A DNA stretch of 14,783 nt from a bacterium (GTDB taxonomy: Bacteria; Arandabacterota; Arandabacteria; Arandabacterales; JALGWA01), in contig JASFEA010000080.1 in the NCBI GenBank assembly GCA_050125095.1, forward strand, positions 1-14,783, read 5' to 3'. Both the position numbers and the translations under genes were made by a program. Within the stretch, counting starts at the first letter, position 1. Every line of letters begins with the position of its first letter. Under the pieces are notes generated by a model that had not been told where the DNA came from, made no database searches, and worked only from the letters and a program-made list of their open reading frames with translations. This document shows positions 3,722 through 13,115 of the stretch, in pieces.

Positions 3722-3750
3722 TTGACAAGAAATTGCCTGCTTTCTATGAT
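3722..3750 (+). promoter_or_regulatory. Sigma70-type promoter for the wecA-like gene
   Basis: TTGACA (3722-3727), 17-nt spacer, TATGAT (3745-3750), in an AT-rich patch. Confidence 0.75.
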
Positions 3751-3787
3751 ACCAACGGTTGGGAATAGCCAGGGGGGCGTGTACGTG

Positions 3788-4960
3788 ATGAACTTGCTGC
3801 TATTTATAGGGGCCGGGTTGTTGGGATTCAGTTTTTCCCTGGCATGCGTCCCCTTGAGCAGCCGCATATCGAGGTTCGTCCGGGCGGTGGACCATCCAGT
3901 GCCGGAGAAAGTCCACAGGAAGCCGATGCCCCGGCTCGGAGGGCTGGCCATCTACCTGGGGTTCTGGCTGAGCGTATTCGTGCTGTATCTGGTTTACGGC
4001 GAGGCCCTCGGGGCCTTCGAGCGCCAGGTCCAGGGCCTTCTCCTGGGCAGTTCCCTTATTCTTTCGGTAGGCATACTGGATGACATCTTCGGGCTCGGCG
4101 CCTGGGTGAAGCTCTTTGTTGAGATCGCCGCGGCCGTCGTAGTGGTGAGCTTCGGTTTCCGTATGCTCCCGGCAGGCAGCCTTGGCTTCCTGGGCGGCGC
4201 CGGCGAGGTCGTCGTTCTTGCGGGCAGCATCGTCTGGATTGTCTGGGTGACCAATGTCTTCAATCTCGCCGACGGACTCGACGGCCTGGCGGCCGGCATC
4301 GGCGGCATCGTGAGCCTGAGCATCATGGTTCTGGGGCTGAGTCTCGGTGTCCCCTGGGTCGGCCTGCTGAGCATTATCCTCTTCGGCGTGTGCACGGGTT
4401 TTCTGGTTCACAATTTCCCGCCGGCCCGAATCTTCATGGGAGACAGCGGCAGCCTCTTCCTGGGTTTCACCTTCGCCTCCGTAATCATGGGAGTCGCGGG
4501 CGTTGACGGCGGGCACGGCATATCGCTGCTGGGCATTCTCGCTCTCGGAGTTCCCATGATCGACGGTATCGGCGCCGTCTTGCGGAGGCTGATCAACCGC
4601 CAGAGCATCATGACGGGTGACCGCGACCACCTGCATTACAAGCTGCTGCTCAGGAACGGGAGCAGGCGCAGAGTGGCCCTGGTGATCTACCTGATGACGG
4701 TGGGCTTCAGCGGCCTATCGCTTCTCATCTACTTCAAGTTCAACGGGCACGGACCGCTGCTTGCGCTGGCAAGCACATGCGTCGCGGCGGTGCTGGTTGT
4801 GAAGCGCTTCAGGCTGCTCGAGCTCTACATAAGCAAGTATCATCTTCTCCCCGGAAAGAGCCTCTCCGGGTTCCTTCTGGATGAGAGCGGGGAGGTCCGG
4901 ACGATTCCCGGCTCGAAACCCTCAGGCGACAAGGAGAAGACACTCGCTCCGACCCGCTAG
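3788..4960 (+). CDS. MraY/WecA/TagO family undecaprenyl-phosphate GlcNAc-1-phosphate transferase
   Basis: Multi-TM protein with KVHRKPMPRLGGLAI, GILDD, NVFNLADGLDGLA, HNFPPARIFMGDSGS and DRDHLHY. Start moved to ATG 3788 because the ORF-track start (TTG 3722) is the -35 box. Confidence 0.9.
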   Translation: MNLLLFIGAGLLGFSFSLACVPLSSRISRFVRAVDHPVPEKVHRKPMPRLGGLAIYLGFWLSVFVLYLVYGEALGAFERQVQGLLLGSSLILSVGILDDIFGLGAWVKLFVEIAAAVVVVSFGFRMLPAGSLGFLGGAGEVVVLAGSIVWIVWVTNVFNLADGLDGLAAGIGGIVSLSIMVLGLSLGVPWVGLLSIILFGVCTGFLVHNFPPARIFMGDSGSLFLGFTFASVIMGVAGVDGGHGISLLGILALGVPMIDGIGAVLRRLINRQSIMTGDRDHLHYKLLLRNGSRRRVALVIYLMTVGFSGLSLLIYFKFNGHGPLLALASTCVAAVLVVKRFRLLELYISKYHLLPGKSLSGFLLDESGEVRTIPGSKPSGDKEKTLAPTR

Positions 4961-4964
4961 GGGC

Positions 4965-5519
4965 CTACCGGTACATTGCCTTAATTCTGCCCCATGTGCC
5001 GGATTCTACCGCCGATCCGGGTGGTCCGTCGAAGTACAGGCAGTCGAGCCTTATCCTGGTGCCGCTGAGATTGAGGATGCGTAAGGTGAAGGTGCCCTGT
5101 TCGATATTGAGGAAGTCGCTCCCGGCGACTTCGGTGTAGAGAACGGCCGATCACCCGATGCCGAGGCCGAGGGTGTGATAATAGGACTCGAGATCGCCGC
5201 CGCCCTGGGCGCCGCCTGTTATGGTCATGCGCGCATCGCCTTCATAGTCGAGCTCATTGGCCGAGCGCAGCGTGTCGGCATAAGCGGCCGGCGCCGGGAC
5301 GGTAAGGCTCAGCTCGATCCACTCTCCGGGCGAATCGAATCCCTCAACTGCATAGCCGCCGCTGGCGGCGCCGCAGATTGTCACGTGTATTTCCTCTCCG
5401 CCCGTGTTGAACGAGGCGGTGTAGGTCTCGGCCTCCACGGTGATCTGGTGGGCGTAGGTGCATGCGGGCAATAGAACGGCGACTAACGCGGCCGCCATAA
5501 CCGCTGGCAATCTGACCAA
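4965..5519 (-). CDS. Secreted CBM6/CBM35-like protein with in-frame UGA at codon 123; putative selenoprotein, 184 aa
   Basis: TTG start at 5519 with AGGAGG 7 nt upstream and signal peptide MVRLPAVMAAALVAVLLPACTYA. After the TGA (5151-5153) the frame continues SAVLYTEVAGSDFLNIEQGTFTLRILNLSGTRIRLDCLYFDGPPGSAVESGTWGRIKAMYR to TAG 4965-4967. The C-terminus matches the neighbours' motif, and a SECIS-like hairpin follows the UGA. Confidence 0.72.
5112..5132 (-). promoter_or_regulatory. Candidate bacterial SECIS element
   Basis: mRNA reads GAAGUCGC-CGGGA-GCGACUUC: a perfect 8-bp stem starting 18 nt 3' of the UGA, with a 5-nt loop starting 26 nt 3' of it and G at loop position 2. Confidence 0.62.
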
Positions 5520-5560
5520 TATACGGCCTCCTCTTGTCCGGTTAGCATTAGTTACTATAT

Positions 5561-5589
5561 ATATTACCATTAACGGCGCGACAATACAA
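5561..5589 (-). promoter_or_regulatory. Sigma70-type promoter for the UGA-containing gene
   Basis: Minus strand TTGTAT (5589-5584), 17-nt spacer, TAATAT (5566-5561), preceded by a TGn extended -10; AT-rich. Confidence 0.55.
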
Positions 5590-5605
5590 GCGGTTTAGGC
5601 CTGAT

Positions 5606-5639
5606 TGGGGTCAGACTATGGGGTCAGGTCTTGAATTGC
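5606..5639. repeat. TGGGGTCAG direct repeat / REP-like half element
   Basis: TGGGGTCAG at 5606-5614 and 5619-5627; the second copy extends as GGGGTCAGGTCTTGAATTGC. Confidence 0.35.
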
Positions 5640-5685
5640 ACAATGGAGTAGGCCCCCAAAAGCGCAATTTCGGGAGCCGCCCCGC

Positions 5686-6558
5686 CTAGCGGTAAATCGA
5701 CTTGATGCTGCCCCATGACGTCTTCTCGAGGACCGTGGGACCATGGCACCCCAGGTAGATCCGCCACGCCAGTTCGCAGTATCCATACTGGGTCGCGTCC
5801 TCGGTTGTATCCTGCAGATCCTTGAACCGGAGCGGGGGGCAATATTCGAACCCCTTGCCGAAGTAACCGGAGTGCATCACGGCGTAGTGGCTGCTGTACG
5901 GCCTGGGGAAGAGAGCTTCAAGGCAGCCGTAATCATGCATGTCGCAACCCTGCTCGACACTCATCCCTATGTTGTCTGTGCCCAGAAATGCCGGACATAC
6001 CCCATGGATGTCGTCAGTATACGTCCAGGTAACGAGCACATTCGGGCCTGAAAGCGGCTGGCCGGGATCAATACAGCAAGGAGTCAGGCAGAGCGCTGGG
6101 TCAACGGGAATCTCAATCCACCCCGAGTTTCCCTGAAGCCACAGCGGCCCGCTGTCCCAGAGAGGGGGACCCAACGGGCATCCGTTCTCGTCCGCGCAGT
6201 ATACTTCCATTTCGGCCGACATGTTTCCACAGTAGATTGGGCCGCTTCCGGTGAAATCGAGCACGCGGATCAATTCCAGAGTCTGGCATGCCGCGGGATC
6301 GCAAGGGGAGAAGCCCGACATTGAATTATCACCTATCCGGAACCAGGTTCCCACTACATCTCCCTGCTCGAATTCCCAACCCCACCACCATGAGTAAGTG
6401 GGGCAGGGGATGAAGTAATAGTAGTTGAGAGCGCAGCCATCCAGGGACTCCATCCCGAAGTCGTCGCGAAATTCATAGGCCCTGCCCTCAAGGGCGAGTG
6501 CCGGGGCCGTCCCAAGCAGTACCGCGCAGGCCGCAAGCATCATCACACGGGTTCTCAT
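5686..6558 (-). CDS. Secreted Cys/aromatic-rich hypothetical protein (paralog B) with C-terminal SWGSIKSIYR
   Basis: AGGAGGA RBS, signal peptide ending PALA, 17 Cys; co-linear with the upstream paralog (NYYYxIPCPTYSW, RVLDFTG, PRPY..MHSG, ELAWRIYL). Confidence 0.85.
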   Translation of the reverse strand: MRTRVMMLAACAVLLGTAPALALEGRAYEFRDDFGMESLDGCALNYYYFIPCPTYSWWWGWEFEQGDVVGTWFRIGDNSMSGFSPCDPAACQTLELIRVLDFTGSGPIYCGNMSAEMEVYCADENGCPLGPPLWDSGPLWLQGNSGWIEIPVDPALCLTPCCIDPGQPLSGPNVLVTWTYTDDIHGVCPAFLGTDNIGMSVEQGCDMHDYGCLEALFPRPYSSHYAVMHSGYFGKGFEYCPPLRFKDLQDTTEDATQYGYCELAWRIYLGCHGPTVLEKTSWGSIKSIYR

Positions 6559-6570
6559 TGCAGTCCTCCT

Positions 6571-7437
6571 TCACCGGTACATGGACTTGATATTGCCCCA
6601 GGTGGCCGGCTCGGTCTCCGAGGGGCCGTAACACGTCAGGTATATCCTCCAGGCCAGTTCTATGTACCCGTAGTCGGTGGCGTCGGGCGTGGTGTCTCGA
6701 CCGTCCTTGAACCACTGCGGAGGACAGTATGTGAAGTCCTGTCCGTAGAAGCCCGAGTGCATGGTGGTGTAATAGCTGTTATAAGGCCTGGGGTAGATGC
6801 TCGAAAGGCAGCTGATGTCATGCATTTCGCAGCCGGCCTCGAGGTTGGAGCTGACGTTGTCGGTGCCCCACTCCGGGTAGAAGTGGTGTCTGCCGACATG
6901 TTTCGCTGTTATGAGTACTCTGGGTGCCGACGGCTGGCCGCCCGGGATGACGGAGCAATCGCATATGCTCAGGGGAGGATCCACAGAAATGTAGTTCCAC
7001 CCAAATCCCGTCTTCCAGGGACCCATCGACCAGAGCGAGGGGCCGACTGGGCAGCCGTATTCGTCGCAGCAATAGATATCGAATTCCACCTCGTGATGAG
7101 ACGGGTATGGAATGCCGTATCCGGTGAAGTCCAGGACCCGGAACATGTCCAGCGTATGGCATTCGTCCGGGTCACAGGCTGTGCCTGTAGCCATTGAAAT
7201 GTCACCGACCTGAAAGAAGGCCCCGACTATGTCATCTTGCTCCCAGCCCTCGAAGCTCCAGAACCATGAGTAAGTCGGGCAGGGTATGTAGTAGTAGTAG
7301 TTGAGATAGCAGTCTTCCAGGGACTCCATCCCGAAATCCTCTCTGATCTGATACGCCCTGCCATCAAAGCTCAACGCGGGACAGGCGGATACGATTACTG
7401 CCAAGACGACGGTGAATGCAATAATAGTATTCCGCAT
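6571..7437 (-). CDS. Secreted Cys/aromatic-rich hypothetical protein (paralog A) with C-terminal TWGNIKSMYR, 288 aa
   Basis: True start is ATG 7437 (MRNTIIAFTVVLAVIVSACPALS) with AGGAGGT RBS at 7444-7450; 14 Cys; aligns end to end with 5686..6558. Confidence 0.85.
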   Translation of the reverse strand: MRNTIIAFTVVLAVIVSACPALSFDGRAYQIREDFGMESLEDCYLNYYYYIPCPTYSWFWSFEGWEQDDIVGAFFQVGDISMATGTACDPDECHTLDMFRVLDFTGYGIPYPSHHEVEFDIYCCDEYGCPVGPSLWSMGPWKTGFGWNYISVDPPLSICDCSVIPGGQPSAPRVLITAKHVGRHHFYPEWGTDNVSSNLEAGCEMHDISCLSSIYPRPYNSYYTTMHSGFYGQDFTYCPPQWFKDGRDTTPDATDYGYIELAWRIYLTCYGPSETEPATWGNIKSMYR

Positions 7438-8884: not shown

Positions 8885-9340
8885 GTGAGCAAAGTGCGAT
8901 TTCTGGTAGACCGGACAGCCGGGAAACTGGCCCGTTATATGAGAATCCTGGGGATCGATACGGACTATATCGCGACCTGCGACATGCCGCCTATCGTCAA
9001 GCTCGCGAGGCAGTCGGGACGCACGGTGGTGACCCGTAACGCGCGGCTCGTCGACCGGCTGGGCGGCGGCCTTCTTCTTGAGAGCGACGCGCTGTCTGAA
9101 CAGGTGACGCAGGTCGTGCGGACCGTCGGCGAGGAAAACCTCGCTCCGTTCACCCGTTGCAGCGTCTGTAACGAGAAGCTCAAACGCGTGGAGAAGGAGA
9201 GCCTTAAGGGCAGGATACCCGAATACGTATATGAGACGCAGGACGAGTTCGCCACCTGCCCTTCATGCGGAAGATACTACTGGAAGGGAACGCATTGGGA
9301 TAAGATGAAAGAGGACATCGAGAGAATGGTGGGAGGTTGA
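8885..9340 (+). CDS. Mut7-C RNase domain protein (PIN-like fold plus Zn ribbon)
   Basis: FLVDRTAGKLARYMRILGIDT, R..VTR, FTRCSVCN...CPSCGRYYWKGTHW. Confidence 0.88.
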   Translation: MSKVRFLVDRTAGKLARYMRILGIDTDYIATCDMPPIVKLARQSGRTVVTRNARLVDRLGGGLLLESDALSEQVTQVVRTVGEENLAPFTRCSVCNEKLKRVEKESLKGRIPEYVYETQDEFATCPSCGRYYWKGTHWDKMKEDIERMVGG

Positions 9341-9347
9341 TCTTGAG

Positions 9348-10208
9348 ATGACGACAGTCGGAGAGAGAGTCAAAGGCATGATACCGGTGCTCAAGGTGGA
9401 GGGCGAGACCGTCCCCGAGGTCTGGGAGCGGGCGGTCATTCTCTGCTGGAACGAAGGCATAAGCATCAGGACCGAATACGACCGTCCCGACGACCCGCCC
9501 AGCAGGGACTGCTCCATGATCATGGTGATGAATGACCCTCTGGGCGAGCCCCGCATCCACAGGGCCTTTCCCGGCGGGCTCGAGGACCTTGAGGTATACC
9601 GGCTCGAGGTCGTGGACGGAATACACGACGACTGGATCAAGCCGGAAGAGGGCAAGTGGAGCTACACCTATCACGAGCGGCTGTATTCGTATCCGCACGC
9701 GGAAGGCGCAGAGCGCATTGACCAGATGGCCTACATCGCCGACAAGCTCTCGAAGGCCCCCTATTCTCGGCGGGCCCAGGCCATTACCTGGGTGGTCAAG
9801 ACCGACAGGTTCTTCGAGGACCCACCCTGCCTGCAGAGGATATGGTGCAGGCTCATGGACGAGGGCGACCGGTCGGTTCTCAATATGAACGTCCACTGGC
9901 GGTCGAGAGACGCCTACAAGGCCGCTTTCATGAATCTATTCGCGCTCACAGACCTCATGCGCCGCATGGCCGGGTCAATAGAGGAAAAAATCGGCAGGCC
10001 GGTCGCCTGCGGCAGGTACGCCGAGTTCGTGGACAGCTTCCATATCTACGGATCCTACTTCAAGGAGTTCGAGGGCTTCCTCAAGACAGTCGAGAAGCGC
10101 AAGTTCGAGGACCGGGTCTGGGACTCGAGTTTCGCAGAGCCGGTTTTCGAGGAGGCAAGGAAGAAAGTCGCCGACGGCACCTGGAACTGGCGCGAGCAGA
10201 GCGAGTAA
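9348..10208 (+). CDS. Thymidylate synthase family protein (archaeal-type ThyA-like)
   Basis: YTYHERL, SRRAQAITW, catalytic PPCLQ, WRSRD..AFMN and DSFHIY. An alternative start exists at ATG 9378. Confidence 0.8.
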   Translation: MTTVGERVKGMIPVLKVEGETVPEVWERAVILCWNEGISIRTEYDRPDDPPSRDCSMIMVMNDPLGEPRIHRAFPGGLEDLEVYRLEVVDGIHDDWIKPEEGKWSYTYHERLYSYPHAEGAERIDQMAYIADKLSKAPYSRRAQAITWVVKTDRFFEDPPCLQRIWCRLMDEGDRSVLNMNVHWRSRDAYKAAFMNLFALTDLMRRMAGSIEEKIGRPVACGRYAEFVDSFHIYGSYFKEFEGFLKTVEKRKFEDRVWDSSFAEPVFEEARKKVADGTWNWREQSE

Positions 10209-10267: not shown

Positions 10268-11512
10268 GTGAGGCTGCGCGCAATTGTGAACGTGACCGGC
10301 GCCAGGACTTACACCTTCATCGCCGCGATGATATTGGTCGTACTGATATTCGCTTACACGTATTCCCTGGTGAGGAGCTTCGAGGTGCAGACGAACACCC
10401 TGACGAGAGTGTTCGCCAAGTTCTGCGCCGCCGCGACCTATCCCGCGACGCGCGACGAGGAAGTGCGCTACATCTTCGACGAGATAATAAAGGACATCAA
10501 CTTCCCCATCGTCATCACCGACCCGAGAGGCGTGCCCTACACCTGGAAGAACGTCGGGGAGCATATCAGCGCCGACGATGTCAGCTGGGACCTCTTCGTG
10601 GATACAAACCCGGCCGACCCGCCGCCGGGGACCATGAGCGAGATAATAGCGGTCGTGAACGAAATGGACGCGCGCAACCAGCCGGTACTCATGTTTGATC
10701 CCGTGACCGGCAGGTTCCTGGGCAGCGTGCACTACGGGGAGCCGGCGATCACAAGCGGCCTCAAATGGCTTCCGCTTGCGTCCGGGGCGCTGCTCGCCGT
10801 ATTCATACTTATGAGTTATCTGGGCCTCCGCGGAATAATCGTCGGCGAGCGCAGATCGATATGGGTGGGCATGGCCAAGGAGACGGCGCATCAGCTTGGA
10901 ACGCCCCTGTCGTCGCTCATGGGTTGGGTGCAGATTCTCAAGGAGCACTCGGCCGACGACCGCACGCGCCGGGCCGTACACGAGATGGAAAGCGACATCA
11001 TGCGCCTCACCAAGATCGCCTCGCGTTTCGGCAAAGTCGGCTCGCCGCCCAGGCTCGACATGGAAGACGTGGTGGAGATCGCGCGCAGCGCCGTCGACTA
11101 TCAGAAGAAGCGCCTCCCTTCGCTCGGCAAGGAAGTGGAGATCAAGGAGCATTACGGCAACGTGCCCAGGACGCTGGTCAACACCGACCTCCTGGAGTGG
11201 GCCGTGGAAAACCTCGTCAAGAACGCCATCGACGCCCAGGACAAGTCCAGGGGCATCGTTGAAGTCAGAACTACTTATATTCCCCAGAAGCACGTGGTAT
11301 CAATAGAGGTTGAGGACAACGGCAGGGGAATGGACCAGAAGAGCTCCAAGAAGATATTCGATCCCGGCTTCACGACGCGCAAGGGCGGCTGGGGGCTGGG
11401 ACTCCCGCTTGCGAGGCGCGTCGTGGAAGAGTACCATGGAGGCAAGCTGAGACTGGTAAGAACGACCCCCGGGCGGGGCTCGCTCTTCGTCATAGAGATC
11501 CCCGCGGTATGA
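10268..11512 (+). CDS. Membrane sensor histidine kinase
   Basis: Two TM segments; H-box WVGMAKETAHQLGTPLSSL, N-box ENLVKNAIDA, G1 DNGRGM, F-box IFDPGFTT, G2 GWGLGL. Confidence 0.93.
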   Translation: MRLRAIVNVTGARTYTFIAAMILVVLIFAYTYSLVRSFEVQTNTLTRVFAKFCAAATYPATRDEEVRYIFDEIIKDINFPIVITDPRGVPYTWKNVGEHISADDVSWDLFVDTNPADPPPGTMSEIIAVVNEMDARNQPVLMFDPVTGRFLGSVHYGEPAITSGLKWLPLASGALLAVFILMSYLGLRGIIVGERRSIWVGMAKETAHQLGTPLSSLMGWVQILKEHSADDRTRRAVHEMESDIMRLTKIASRFGKVGSPPRLDMEDVVEIARSAVDYQKKRLPSLGKEVEIKEHYGNVPRTLVNTDLLEWAVENLVKNAIDAQDKSRGIVEVRTTYIPQKHVVSIEVEDNGRGMDQKSSKKIFDPGFTTRKGGWGLGLPLARRVVEEYHGGKLRLVRTTPGRGSLFVIEIPAV

Positions 11513-11552
11513 TGCGGGGCGCTGAGCGCGGCACAGCGAGGTGACCGGAAAC

Positions 11553-13115
11553 ATGGCTGAATCCAAGACAACTATACTCTGGGTGGACGATGAGATAGAT
11601 CTTCTCAAGAGCCACATCCTATTTCTTGAGGAAAAGGGCTATGAAGTAATACCGGTCTCCAACGGGGAAGACGCGGTGCGCATCGTCGCCACGAAGCCTC
11701 CCAACATAATGCTGCTCGACCAGATGATGCCCGGCCTTGACGGCATATCGACTTTCTTGAGAGTAAAGGAGGTCAACCAGGCCGTGCCGGTCATCATGAT
11801 CACCAAGATAGAAGAGGACGAGCTCATCGACGAGGCCTTGAGAAAGCGCATAGATGACTTCCTGTTGAAGCCCGTAAACCCCGTCCAGATACTCTCGGCG
11901 GTAAGGAGGATACTGGAAAGCAAGGCCATTCGCGAGAAGGAGCTCTCCCGCGAGTACGTGGATCACTTCAACGAGATAGAGGCGATGAAGTCCGCGGCGG
12001 AGGGGTGGGAGGACTGGATAAATATACATGAGAGGCTGAGCGAATGGGACAACATCCTGGATGAGTTCCCCGACAGCGGGCTCATGCAGACTCACCTGGA
12101 CCAGCGGCGGCAGTGTAACGTCGACTTCAGCATGTTCATCGAGAAGAACTACCGGACCTGGGTCAATGACGGCGAGAGACCGAGGTTCTCAGTAGACATA
12201 GTAAAGGACTTCGTCGCTCCCCACAGGCGTGAAGGCCGCAGGGTGTATTTCATAGTGATCGACTGCCTCAGGCTTGACCAGTGGCTGGCCATACAGCCGA
12301 TGCTCGAGCCCTATTACAATGTCCGGTTAGACCACTATTACTCCATCCTCCCGACGGCGACGCCCTACTCGCGGAACGCGATATTCAGCGGCCTGTTCCC
12401 GAGCGAGATCGCGTCGGTCCACCCGCAGTACTGGAACGAGCAGGAAGACGATGAGGTCGGCAAGAACCGCTTCGAGAGGCAGCTCATGGACGCGCAGCTC
12501 AAGAGGATGGGGCTCGCCGTGACCCCGCCCGTCAAGTATCTCAAAGTATACGATGCCGATGAAGCCCAGCTGGTTAAGCGCCAGATCCCCACGCTGGGGA
12601 ATTTGCCGATGGTGGCCCTGGTTTTCAACTTCGTGGACATTGTCGCGCACAGCCGGTCGGAGATGCGGATATTGCAGGAGATCCTCCCCAACGAATCGGC
12701 TTACCGCAGCTTCACCCGGTCCTGGTTTGCCCATTCGCCGCTCCTGGATATAATGAAGGCCGTAGCCCAGGAGGACGCTGTGGTTGTGGTCACGACGGAC
12801 CACGGTTCGGTGCTGGTGAGAAGGTCGGCCAAGGTGCTGGGCGACCGGGATACCTCGACCAACGTCCGGTACAAGTACGGCAACAACCTGAACACCGACG
12901 CTCGCCAGGCGCTCTATATAAAGGCCCCGCTGGACTATAAGCTCCCCGCCGAAGGGCTCAACAAGAACTACATCGTCGCCAAGGAGGATTTCTACTTCGT
13001 CTATCCCACCAATTTCCATGAGTACGAAAGGTACTTCAGGGACAGTTTCCAGCATGGCGGGATATCCTTAGAGGAGATGGTCCTCCCATGCGTGACTCTC
13101 GAGCCGAAGAGATAG
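11553..13115 (+). CDS. porX: PorX-like response regulator (receiver plus PglZ/alkaline-phosphatase-superfamily domain)
   Basis: Receiver ILWVDDE...LLDQMMPG...LKPVNP; PglZ-type motifs IDCLRLDQW, SILPTATPYSRNAIFSG, NFVD..H, TTDHG and FQHGGISLEEM; followed by tsaE as in Bacteroidota. Start ATG 11553 follows GAGGTG. Confidence 0.85.
   Translation: MAESKTTILWVDDEIDLLKSHILFLEEKGYEVIPVSNGEDAVRIVATKPPNIMLLDQMMPGLDGISTFLRVKEVNQAVPVIMITKIEEDELIDEALRKRIDDFLLKPVNPVQILSAVRRILESKAIREKELSREYVDHFNEIEAMKSAAEGWEDWINIHERLSEWDNILDEFPDSGLMQTHLDQRRQCNVDFSMFIEKNYRTWVNDGERPRFSVDIVKDFVAPHRREGRRVYFIVIDCLRLDQWLAIQPMLEPYYNVRLDHYYSILPTATPYSRNAIFSGLFPSEIASVHPQYWNEQEDDEVGKNRFERQLMDAQLKRMGLAVTPPVKYLKVYDADEAQLVKRQIPTLGNLPMVALVFNFVDIVAHSRSEMRILQEILPNESAYRSFTRSWFAHSPLLDIMKAVAQEDAVVVVTTDHGSVLVRRSAKVLGDRDTSTNVRYKYGNNLNTDARQALYIKAPLDYKLPAEGLNKNYIVAKEDFYFVYPTNFHEYERYFRDSFQHGGISLEEMVLPCVTLEPKR

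Follow-up and report, generated by a model that had tools for sequence, protein, structure and literature searches.

A probable exported selenoprotein with a predicted CBM6/CBM35-type fold encoded beside a WecA-like gene

The locus, its neighbours and a shared C-terminal tag

The window, by which we mean the whole analyzed stretch of 14,783 nucleotides, carries on its reverse strand a gene at 4965..5519 that begins with a TTG start (5517-5519), spans 184 codons and ends with a TAG stop (4965-4967). After the residues ...YHTLGLGIG the frame meets an in-frame TGA at 5151-5153, which divides it into 122 codons, the TGA and 61 further sense codons. Public gene calls for the locus end at this TGA (P0004, 122 aa). 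An earlier note, made from the sequence alone, had claimed that the ORF caller stops there and that the frame stays open for another 61 codons, which held when the frame was re-read. A ribosome-binding site, AGGAGG, was read from the sequence at 5527..5532 of the reverse strand, 7 nt before the start codon. The N-terminus displays an n-h-c sequence ending in TYA and followed by HQ, and the structural model places a helix at residues 4-19. From this pattern, common to the orthologues, and from the model helix, without a signal-peptide predictor, we infer a signal peptide covering residues 1-23 (MVRLPAVMAAALVAVLLPACTYA before HQ; 5451..5519, reverse strand). A consensus scan of the spacer upstream of the gene (5520-5685) detected no sigma-70 promoter site, and a scan of the locus found no terminator. 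The earlier claim that promoter, ribosome-binding site and signal peptide are all intact was thus only partly upheld: the second was seen, the third is inferred and the first was not confirmed.

Downstream, 4 nt separate the TAG from the stop codon (TAG, 4958-4960) of a convergent glycosyltransferase family 4 (WecA-like) gene encoded at 3722..4960 on the forward strand (Pfam PF00953, E 5.5e-34), exactly as had been claimed. The WecA-like gene adjoins the putative selenoprotein gene in 13 related loci, retrieved with the narrower alignment A4 (13 sequences), and provides a syntenic anchor of the orthologues. Upstream, on the same reverse strand, are two paralogues: a 290-aa exported protein rich in Cys and Trp (5686..6558) and a 288-aa protein (6571..7437), both with the same C-terminal tag as the window protein. 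In 7 of the 13 syntenic loci, a homologue of the first adjoins the selenoprotein gene. Pfam and NCBIfam searches of both neighbours, in which the read-through protein was included, assigned no family and returned only a chance-level match to Trp_ring (E 0.036).

The tag of the read-through protein, ESGTWGRIKAMYR, occupies residues 172-184 (4968..5006, reverse strand) and is common to about 50 other exported proteins of the genome. The extension terminates in ...VESGTWGRIKAMYR, and the two upstream genes terminate in ...TSWGSIKSIYR and ...ATWGNIKSMYR. The proposal that this terminal match is not due to chance was confirmed, because 52 open frames of the genome (at least 50 codons) carry the motif at their end, the three shortest of which (61, 61 and 68 codons) are the post-TGA pieces of three copies of the family. 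No Pfam or NCBIfam model matches the tag, TWGxIKxxYR, and the region is of low confidence in the structural model (block means 63 and 60). Like the type A sorting domain of the T9SS (Por_Secre_tail, PF18962), it is a C-terminal element common to many unrelated exported proteins; however, Por_Secre_tail is a beta-sandwich domain of 80 residues, whereas the tag has about 13. A test for T9SS type A cargo with PF18962 and TIGR04183 gave no match in the window protein; in P0082, a homologue with Cys in place of the UGA, a FlgD_ig/Por_Secre_tail domain occupies the position of the tag. It is conceivable that TWGxIKxxYR is an undescribed export or sorting tag of the lineage, its role in sorting being inferred rather than shown.

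Conservation of the TGA codon and of the frame beyond it

To begin with the genome itself, TGA occupies the same column in all four copies of the family. Across 61 related genomes, 18 of which carry the family, it was found in 42 of 44 matched places, down to 28% identity, and the remaining two places are C-terminal fragments that fall short of the column. The column, G-x-G-x-[G/S]-U, was verified in 31 loci and in one contig beginning at the TGA; it was also verified in 10 of the 13 loci from named MAG records. Each module contains exactly one TGA, always at this one column. The family comprises a short tagged form located beside wecA and a long lipoprotein form. In every one of the 16 close database proteins the gene call stops directly ahead of the column, and the same holds for 107 of the 150 representatives listed (50% identity clusters), which terminate in the motif preceding the UGA.

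Among family matches, the versions with selenocysteine (Sec) far outnumber those with Cys. Cys occupies the column in 15 of 15 aligned full-length homologues, and these Cys homologues are single continuous proteins. Within the 150 representatives, 25 blastp stretches from 21 proteins span the column, with Cys in 19, Thr in three, Ala in one, Gln in one and a gap in one; Trp was found in none of the 25. The Thr, Ala and Gln residues occur in some distant multi-domain homologues, so the wider superfamily does not share the reactive residue throughout.

The codons that follow the TGA are under purifying selection, as shown by dN/dS values of 0.07-0.16 downstream of it and 0.16-0.34 upstream in three within-genus pairs. 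The TGA itself is not confined to a single assembly: contigs of four sequencing runs from four studies cover 5151-5153 without any difference, one of these runs possibly being the source of the window itself.

These data bear on the simplest alternative, in which the gene is decaying and the TGA genuinely terminates it, having arisen by a recent nonsense mutation, by pseudogenization or by a sequencing error. In its favour, gene callers stop at the TGA, and TGA is in principle one transition away from TGG. Against it stand the same TGA in 18 genomes, the absence of Trp from the column in every homologue, the low downstream dN/dS and the identical codon in the contigs of four runs. We consider this alternative all but excluded, and it is refuted because the TGA is conserved across related genomes.

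A SECIS-like hairpin and the selenocysteine machinery

Downstream of the UGA, a SECIS-like hairpin was identified at 5112..5132 of the reverse strand, composed of GAAGUCGC-CGGGA-GCGACUUC with an 8-bp stem and a 5-nt loop at 5120-5124. The distance from UGA to loop is 26 nt, the hairpin overlaps the codons for E-V-A-G-S-D-F, and the 21-mer folds with an MFE of -11.1 kcal/mol. The published bSECIS model (PMC13188914) describes an apical loop of 3-9 nt, a stem of 4-16 bp, a spacing of 16-37 nt between UGA and loop, a G in the first two loop positions and an MFE of -7.5 kcal/mol or lower, and the window hairpin meets it. A scan of 4900-5600 against Rfam at E 10 returned no match; this negative carries little weight, since bacterial SECIS elements are poorly covered there.

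Across the homologues, stems measure 6-8 bp, the loop reads CGGGA in 28 of 29 hairpins and the UGA-to-loop spacing is either 23 or 26 nt. An MFE of -7.5 kcal/mol or lower was reached by 23 of the 29, the other six being weaker when folded as 21-mers. RNAalifold returned one 6-bp stem with a 5-nt loop. Double changes that preserve pairing were seen in seven of the eight pairs tested, and the covariation score was reached by none of 500 shuffles, with slid controls scoring far lower. This signal stems largely from a few lineage splits (a short form GUC..GAC, a long form GCU..AGC and a single GCC..GGC); the independent events are few and are tied to amino-acid changes, which limits what the covariation can carry. 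A second line of evidence is codon choice. The Ala-Gly-Ser codons read GCC-GGG-AGC in 27 of 29 homologues and the Gly codon is GGG in all 29, although GGG makes up only about 22% of Gly codons in the genome's long frames, which shows that synonymous sites are frozen within the hairpin. In the Sec forms, the hairpin itself encodes the conserved A-G-S protein motif, which is not kept in the Cys forms.

The genome also encodes a full apparatus for selenocysteine. All components scored above the curated cut-offs, with two selD copies at 398 and 355 bits, selB at 380, selA at 561 and tRNA-Sec at 75.5; ARAGORN likewise reported a tRNA-SeC with anticodon tca. One selD copy itself carries Sec (SCSG-U-ASK), and its hairpin has an 8-bp stem and a CGGGC loop, a loop type like that of the family. 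A SelW-like CxxU gene of the genome has the loop CGGGT. A scan of the genome's open frames for TGA codons with a downstream hairpin (stem of 6 bp or more, loop CGGGN) yielded 11 candidates, namely two family members, one SelW-like CxxU gene and eight others; it missed selD owing to a length filter. Among the 18 genomes carrying the family, selA exceeded the cut-off in 17, the exception being a genome that is 57% complete.

TGA otherwise acts as a normal stop in this genome. Among 2267 open frames of 300 codons or more, 981 end in TGA, the commonest stop of long frames, as do 6 of the 14 window genes, 13 of which contain no internal TGA. Genome-wide reassignment of TGA was rejected on these grounds.

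A related alternative is that the UGA is read through without selenium, either by a near-cognate or suppressor tRNA inserting Trp, Cys, Arg or Gly, or by reassignment of TGA in the lineage. In support of it, the inserted residue cannot be told from sequence data alone, and the Cys of the homologues is also compatible with Cys insertion at the UGA. Reassignment is contradicted by the stop usage just described; the selenium-free reading as a whole is further opposed by the single TGA per module at one column, by the bSECIS-type hairpin that follows, with its loop type as in the selD of the genome, and by the full Sec machinery in 17 of the 18 carrier genomes. We regard read-through without selenium as very unlikely.

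Predicted fold, proposed reactive site and place among selenoproteins

Modeling of the full-length protein with AlphaFold2 gave a confident structure (pLDDT 90, pTM 0.81), in which residues 24-165 (5025..5450, reverse strand) form a beta-sandwich like that of the CBM6/35 modules. The top Foldseek matches to the model were CBM6/CBM35 domains with probability 1.00. VIA-align superposed it on the CBM6 structure 2cdo_B with Z 17.3 and an rmsd of 2.2 A over 130 of 137 residues (model range 23-165), and on CBM structures more broadly with Z 17.3-14.6, rmsd 2.0-2.8 A and 117-131 aligned residues. Sequence-based support is weaker. A family profile compared with PDB sequences gave weak matches to CBM6/35-type modules (E 5e-4 to 0.04), and the Pfam models CBM_6 (PF03422) and CBM_35 (PF16990) did not match the read-through protein even at E 1. 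In the ESM Atlas, all matches to the Cys homologue P0020 remained below 0.9, with unnamed clusters at 0.87-0.89 and CBM_6/CBM_35 clusters at 0.78-0.79.

Three strands of the model (129-139, 142-152 and 156-164) fall after the Sec codon. The protein is thus predicted to be a CBM6/35-type beta-sandwich that is complete only with read-through, and the earlier claim of a CBM6/35-like layout split by the TGA held at the level of predicted structure only.

The fold also weighs on the possibility that the UGA is a true terminator, so that a 122-residue protein is made and the 61 codons beyond are translated separately, by termination-reinitiation, or not at all. For this reading, databases list the two pieces as distinct short genes (P0094 and P0112, for example, correspond to the downstream one), and some termination at UGA is expected in any selenoprotein gene. 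On the other side, the first in-frame ATG, GTG or TTG after the TGA comes only at codon +59, and the downstream piece always follows in the same frame with zero gap. That piece bears the export tag yet lacks a separate signal peptide, the 122-residue product would miss the last three strands of the sandwich, and the Cys homologues are unbroken. Termination as the main outcome is accordingly judged very unlikely.

We therefore return to selenocysteine insertion as the preferred reading: 5519..4965 of the reverse strand very likely (probability about 0.9) encodes an exported selenoprotein of 184 residues with UGA 123 translated as Sec, although no selenium, full-length-protein or RNA data are available. 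The assignment of the codon at 5151..5153 (G-L-G-I-G-U) rests on TGA conservation, the Cys homologues and the contigs, and the earlier interpretation that this UGA encodes selenocysteine is additionally supported by the hairpin, the Sec genes and the fold. The checks that the earlier note had proposed came out in its favour: homologues keep the TGA with a conserved downstream frame and hairpin; other homologues mostly carry Cys, and never Trp; the codon is present in contigs of four sequencing runs; selA, selB, selC and selD are all present in the source genome; and structure prediction indicates that the last three strands need read-through.

In the proposed mechanism, UGA 123 would be recoded by the cell's own SelA/SelB/SelD/tRNA-Sec system, directed by the coding-region SECIS hairpin, whose 8-bp stem carries a CGGGA loop 26 nt beyond the codon. 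The product would consist of the signal peptide, the CBM6/CBM35-type beta-sandwich and the short C-terminal TWGxIKxxYR tag. Sec123 is predicted to occupy the tip of a loop rich in glycine (G-x-G-I-G-U), which aligns to the loop immediately preceding the W-T-T-W stretch of 2w47. Its proposed partner is Cys49 (codon at 5373..5375, reverse strand; C-x-x-A-S-G-G), nearly invariant in alignment A3 (36 sequences) and invariant in A4. The earlier note had suggested pairing of Sec with the Cys of either ICGAASGG or LDCLYF; the former, which is Cys49, is conserved, and the latter is not. Sec123 and Cys49 may act as a reactive selenol/thiol pair within what was once the sugar-binding cleft, an inference made without distance, binding or activity data. 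In that case the module would serve outside the cytoplasm for covalent capture, redox chemistry or the binding of soft metals or chalcogens, and would not be an ordinary lectin.

The comparison with CBM6, CBM35 and CBM36 modules (2cdo/2cdp, 5fui, 1uxz, 2w1w/2w47, 1w0n) shows both kinship and divergence. The predicted model shares their beta-sandwich, and the N-terminal E-A-E and the C-terminal ...R-L-D... strand of the window protein resemble the CBM6 pattern, whereas sequence identity is only 9-21%. Rather than a module of a glycoside hydrolase, the window protein is an exported protein of 184 residues that stands alone, without a catalytic domain, and its family has an invariant Sec/Cys together with the nearly invariant Cys49. 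The W-T-T-W stretch, as in CBM35 2w47, is a ligand-binding stretch of classical CBM6/35 modules; the loop that precedes this Trp-containing stretch in 2w47 carries G-I-G-Sec in the window protein.

Redox enzymes that have a thioredoxin fold or carry a cofactor make up the majority of known bacterial selenoproteins (2026 review, PMC13188914). The selenoproteins catalogued outside the cytoplasm are DUF1573 (UGC), an FCYXU-type TonB-dependent receptor, an MtrB/PioB-type barrel, a UshA-like protein and ExtKL (PMC13188914). They share with the window protein the presence of Sec in an exported or envelope protein, a coding-region SECIS, Cys homologues and genes often mis-annotated as truncated or split, but their folds and families are unrelated to it. 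Another point of comparison is MccSep of Geobacter sulfurreducens (bioRxiv 10.1101/2025.11.18.688581), a periplasmic multiheme polysulfide reductase (pentaheme cytochrome) in which Sec and Cys jointly act on an extracytoplasmic chalcogen substrate, and whose gene was once annotated as two, divided at the UGA. Both are selenoproteins bearing a signal peptide (predicted for the window protein); unlike MccSep, the window protein has no CxxCH motif and has a lectin-type fold, and a link to sulfur is only a hypothesis.

No earlier description of this large family of secreted lectin-fold selenoproteins was found in the literature and databases searched. NCBIfam release 20.0 gave no match to the read-through protein at E 1, selenoprotein models included, and Table 1 of PMC13188914 (2026, 119 selenoprotein families) lists no CBM-like or lectin-like family, the BSepDB supplement family list not being covered. 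Literature searches for a CBM-type selenoprotein found none, the matches appearing unrelated by title and abstract start, and no paper was found on Eisenbacteria and selenocysteine.

A bolder reading remains possible, in which this would be the first "seleno-lectin": the Sec-Cys pair would replace the aromatic ligand platform of an exported CBM6-fold module, allowing covalent extracellular capture or conversion of a substrate, with delivery by the undescribed TWGxIKxxYR tag. Candidate substrates would be polysulfide or elemental sulfur, selenium species, or soft metals in sulfidic sediment. If true, Sec would be at work on the cell surface in a binding fold that is not of the thioredoxin type and has no cofactor.

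Together, at least 107 database clusters (50% identity) are cut at the UGA, leaving the family invisible to domain searches. If the selenocysteine reading is correct, the gene ties the Sec system of the lineage to the TWGxIKxxYR tag borne by about 50 of its proteins, and the known scope of Sec use would extend to the ligand loop of a lectin-type beta-sandwich that is secreted. The family would then suggest that anaerobic bacteria of sediments and wetlands carry out selenol chemistry at their surface or beyond it.

The window gene and its in-frame TGA

The window gene (5519-4965, minus strand) starts at a TTG codon (5519-5517) located 7 nt after an AGGAGG motif (5532-5527, minus strand), and the N-terminus of its product reads MVRLPAVMAAALVAVLLPACTYA|HQITVEAETY... 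The frame meets a TGA at 5153-5151 (minus strand), preceded by ...YHTLGLGIG, and remains open for 61 further codons, running to ...SAVLYTEVAGSDFLNIEQGTFTLRILNLSGTRIRLDCLYFDGPPGSAVESGTWGRIKAMYR and a TAG at 4967-4965, with 4 nt between it and the stop codon (TAG) of the convergent WecA-like glycosyltransferase-4 gene (wecA, 3722-4960, plus strand). In the window copy, no in-frame start codon occurs after the TGA before codon +59. The earlier note had claimed the 61-codon extension, the 4-nt spacing and a terminal motif shared with both upstream genes, all of which held; the sole part of that observation that could not be confirmed was an intact promoter, as a sigma-70 consensus scan of the spacer upstream of the gene found none.

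The window's own genome carries four copies of the family (the window and contigs C15, C30 and C124), and all four have TGA at one column, within G-x-G-x-G-U; the C124 contig begins at the TGA. Across the own genome and the relatives searched, the family was found in 18 of 61 genomes, with TGA in 42 of 44 matched places (a single TGA in 40, two in one, and a TGA plus a TAG in another); the other two are C-terminal fragments that do not reach the column. Within the phylum, 17 of the 18 genomes searched contain the family, with TGA every time. The column was checked residue by residue in 31 loci, and likewise in 10 of the 13 loci found in named MAG records; four of these records are titled Candidatus Eisenbacteria. 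All 16 matches in a 5.8-billion-protein index are gene calls of 112–126 aa stopping exactly at ...G-[LIVQ]-G-I-[G/A/S]. The same motif ends 107 of 150 representatives taken from the 200 proteins matching at E up to 1e-3 in a 1.84-billion-representative library. Positions 5151-5153 are also identical in contigs from four sequencing runs belonging to four studies (wetland, sediment, seawater), one of which is possibly the window's own source. The possibility that the TGA is a lesion is thus ruled out by its conservation across copies, genomes, database gene calls and the four runs.

Contigs from other runs show single-base differences at window positions 5283, 5505 and 5533 (contigs X2 and X3 have A>G and T>C, and X4 has C>T); two of these lie within the gene, and all leave the TGA and the downstream hairpin untouched. 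In a named MAG record (L063, ~2350-2950), one frame holds two module copies separated by ~200 codons, their motifs being G-W-G-F-G-U and G-M-G-L-G-U.

Selenocysteine machinery, SECIS-like hairpin and downstream translation

Profile searches detected selA (561 bits), selB (380 bits), selD (398 bits, and 355 bits for a selD with its own TGA) and tRNA-Sec (75.5 bits) in the genome, all over cut-off, and ARAGORN reported a tRNA-SeC with anticodon tca. The TGA-containing selD (SCSG-U-ASK; G000:C59:10192-11321, loci L006 and L020) has an 8-bp stem with a CGGGC loop after its UGA, and the tRNA-SeC lies ~120 nt downstream on the same contig; a second selD, without TGA, sits inside a 753-codon open frame on contig C26. 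A small SelW-like gene on contig C13 (plus strand, TGA at 0-based offset 19218; …IYYCVR-U-KFLPQ…, a CxxU motif) likewise has a 7-bp hairpin with a CGGGT loop after the UGA. Among the 18 family-carrying genomes, selA exceeds the cut-off in 17, the exception being a genome 57% complete. Otherwise TGA serves as a regular stop in this genome. Of 2267 open frames with 300 codons or more, 981 terminate at TGA (a rough count that does not exclude shadow frames), as do 6 of the 14 window genes; internal TGA is absent from 13 of those 14.

One and the same hairpin follows every TGA in the family; its window copy, GAAGUCGC-CGGGA-GCGACUUC (5132-5112, minus strand), is SECIS-like. RNAalifold on 29 aligned sequences returned only one stem, of 6 bp, capped by a 5-nt loop. 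In an 8-pair version of the stem, 80.8% of cells are paired and 7 of the 8 pairs show pairing-preserving double changes (U-A 14/C-G 9/U-G 4; C-G 19/U-A 8); the covariation score was reached by 0 of 500 shuffles, and sliding the 3' arm by 1–3 columns as a control lowered pairing to 27–51%. The CGGGA loop is found in 28 of 29 sequences, the distance from UGA to loop is 26 nt in short forms and 23 nt in long forms, and in 23 of 29 the 21-nt hairpin folds with an MFE no weaker than -7.5 kcal/mol (-11.1 in the window). The published bacterial SECIS model (PMC13188914) specifies a loop of 3–9 nt, a stem of 4–16 bp, G in the first two loop positions, a spacing of 16–37 nt and an MFE of at most -7.5; the values of the family hairpin fit it. 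One caveat is that the compensatory changes track a small number of lineage splits and go together with amino-acid differences (V..D vs A..S), so independent covariation events are few. Within the hairpin, Ala-Gly-Ser is encoded as GCC-GGG-AGC in 27 of 29 sequences, and Gly is GGG in all 29; GGG accounts for ~22% of the Gly codons used in the own genome's long frames. The A-G-S motif is not conserved in Cys homologues. These fixed codons, together with the similarly looped selD hairpin, probably reflect constraint at the RNA level.

In three within-genus pairs (dS ~1), dN/dS was 0.15, 0.16 and 0.07 after the TGA versus 0.34, 0.29 and 0.16 before it, which makes translation of the downstream part very likely. 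Synonymous sites were saturated in more distant pairs, and an in-genome paralogue pair was less constrained both after the TGA (0.57) and before it (0.39).

The C-terminal tag and family forms

The two genes upstream (5686-6558 and 6571-7437, minus strand) encode paralogous exported proteins of ~290 aa with a high content of Cys, Trp and Tyr. They end in ...SWGSIKSIYR and ...TWGNIKSMYR, i.e., in the TWGxIKxxYR tag, and neither matched Pfam or NCBIfam. A scan of all 268 contigs of the genome (3.35 Mb, GC 60%) found W-G-x-I-K-x-x-Y-R-like endings in 52 open frames that were 50 codons or longer (e.g., on C8, C117, C35 and C115), mostly following ...G-P-x-A-x-E-P-x-T, the fuller form being E-P-x-T-W-G-x-I-K-x-x-Y-R. 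The terminal motif common to the window gene and its upstream neighbours is therefore not due to chance. The shortest three tagged frames (61, 61 and 68 codons) coincide exactly with the post-TGA pieces of three family copies; they bear an export-type C-terminal tag and no signal peptide. No library model matches this lineage-wide tag. In the Cys form P0082 (289 aa), a FlgD_ig/Por_Secre_tail T9SS domain takes the place of the window protein's short tag, which would fit a role of the tag, inferred and no more than possible, as an export or sorting element.

Short forms (~185 aa) consist of signal peptide, module and tag and converge with wecA at 13 loci within the order; homologues of the two Cys-rich tagged neighbours adjoin the selenoprotein gene in seven of these 13 syntenic loci, with seryl-tRNA synthetase beyond. 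Long forms (~355–367 aa, with the paralogues L003 943-2064 on contig C30 and L047-L055 at ~355–374 aa) have a lipoprotein-like ...C-G signal, a ~200-residue N-terminal region (no Pfam match in L003) and the same Sec module at the C-terminus, without the tag. Elsewhere, the window encodes a Mut7-C RNase-domain protein and, after it, a 286-aa protein whose only match is a weak one to thymidylate synthase (E 8e-10; 8885-10208). At 10268-13115, a histidine kinase precedes a fusion of a response-regulator receiver with a PglZ domain.

Predicted fold, Cys homologues and the putative Sec/Cys site

The AlphaFold2 model, built from 36 aligned sequences that comprise Sec forms (U written as C) and Cys forms, has pLDDT 90.0 and pTM 0.81, with a signal-peptide helix (4–19), eleven strands across residues 25–164 and a low-confidence tail. 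Its best PDB matches in Foldseek are the CBM6/CBM35 modules 2cdp, 5fui, 2cdo, 2w1w and 2w47 (probability 1.00, target TM 0.70–0.79); VIA-align ranked CBM6 2cdo_B highest (Z 17.3, rmsd 2.2 Å, 130 aligned residues, model 23–165), followed by CBM35, CBM36 and Cry-toxin domain III (Z 14.5–15.6). Three strands (129–139, 142–152 and 156–164) follow Sec123, and the domain is therefore predicted to be complete only with read-through; the earlier note's claim of such a CBM6/35-like domain held at this level of predicted structure. By sequence, the kinship is remote: the window protein matched nothing in Pfam or NCBIfam even at E 1, and the family profile matches CBM6/35-type chains weakly (E 5e-4 to 0.04). 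In the alignment with CBM35 2w47, the G-I-G-U loop falls directly before the W-T-T-W stretch of 2w47. In CBM6/35 structures, this region supplies the ligand cleft with an aromatic residue.

Cys occupies the column in all 15 proteins (177–289 aa, match crossing the column) hand-picked by eye from the 150 listed representatives, the invariant columns of their alignment being E, G, G, C(U) and D. A blastp comparison over all 150 yielded 25 column-spanning stretches in 21 proteins, with Cys in 19, Thr in three, Ala, Gln and a gap in one each, and Trp in none. The non-Cys cases are distant repeats of the large multi-domain proteins P0048, P0053 and P0163 and one alignment end (P0054); Thr, Ala or Gln stands at the column in P0053, P0163 and one repeat of P0048. 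According to the earlier note, Trp at this column would have refuted the Sec reading; as none of the spanning stretches has it, that refutation fails. P0023 (2778 aa), P0048, P0053 and P0163 are giant proteins of many domains, in which as many as 22 stretches match the module.

Given the SECIS context, the Sec-competent organism and Cys in homologues, UGA123 is very likely a sense codon, and Sec is inferred to be the residue inserted. We put the reading of an exported selenoprotein, recoded by the organism's own SelA, SelB, SelD and tRNA-Sec, at about 0.9, its function being inferred. Sec had been suggested to pair with the Cys of ICGAASGG or of LDCLYF: the former (Cys49) is nearly invariant in the 36-sequence alignment and invariant in a narrower one of 13 sequences, and the latter is not conserved. 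The remaining Cys of Cys forms and long forms occur in pairs, as expected for exported proteins, which makes a C49–U123 partnership plausible, although the pairing is still inferred. By analogy, MccSep, with an extracytoplasmic Sec/Cys pair acting on polysulfide (bioRxiv 10.1101/2025.11.18.688581), offers a precedent, for the window protein a lead only.

Most characterised selenoproteins have thioredoxin-like folds (PMC13188914), and no CBM-like or lectin-like entry is among the 119 prokaryotic selenoprotein families catalogued there in 2026 (Table 1). deep-Sep (PMC12013277) and BSepDB (PMC13326102) do not mention carbohydrate-binding folds, listing in their supplementary family tables not being excluded, and no description of this family was found in the literature searched. 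The window gene thus very likely represents real, canonical Sec recoding, the inserted residue being inferred, in a family and fold previously undescribed for it in that literature. We propose that Sec123 and Cys49 may work together as a reactive or chelating site in a former sugar cleft.
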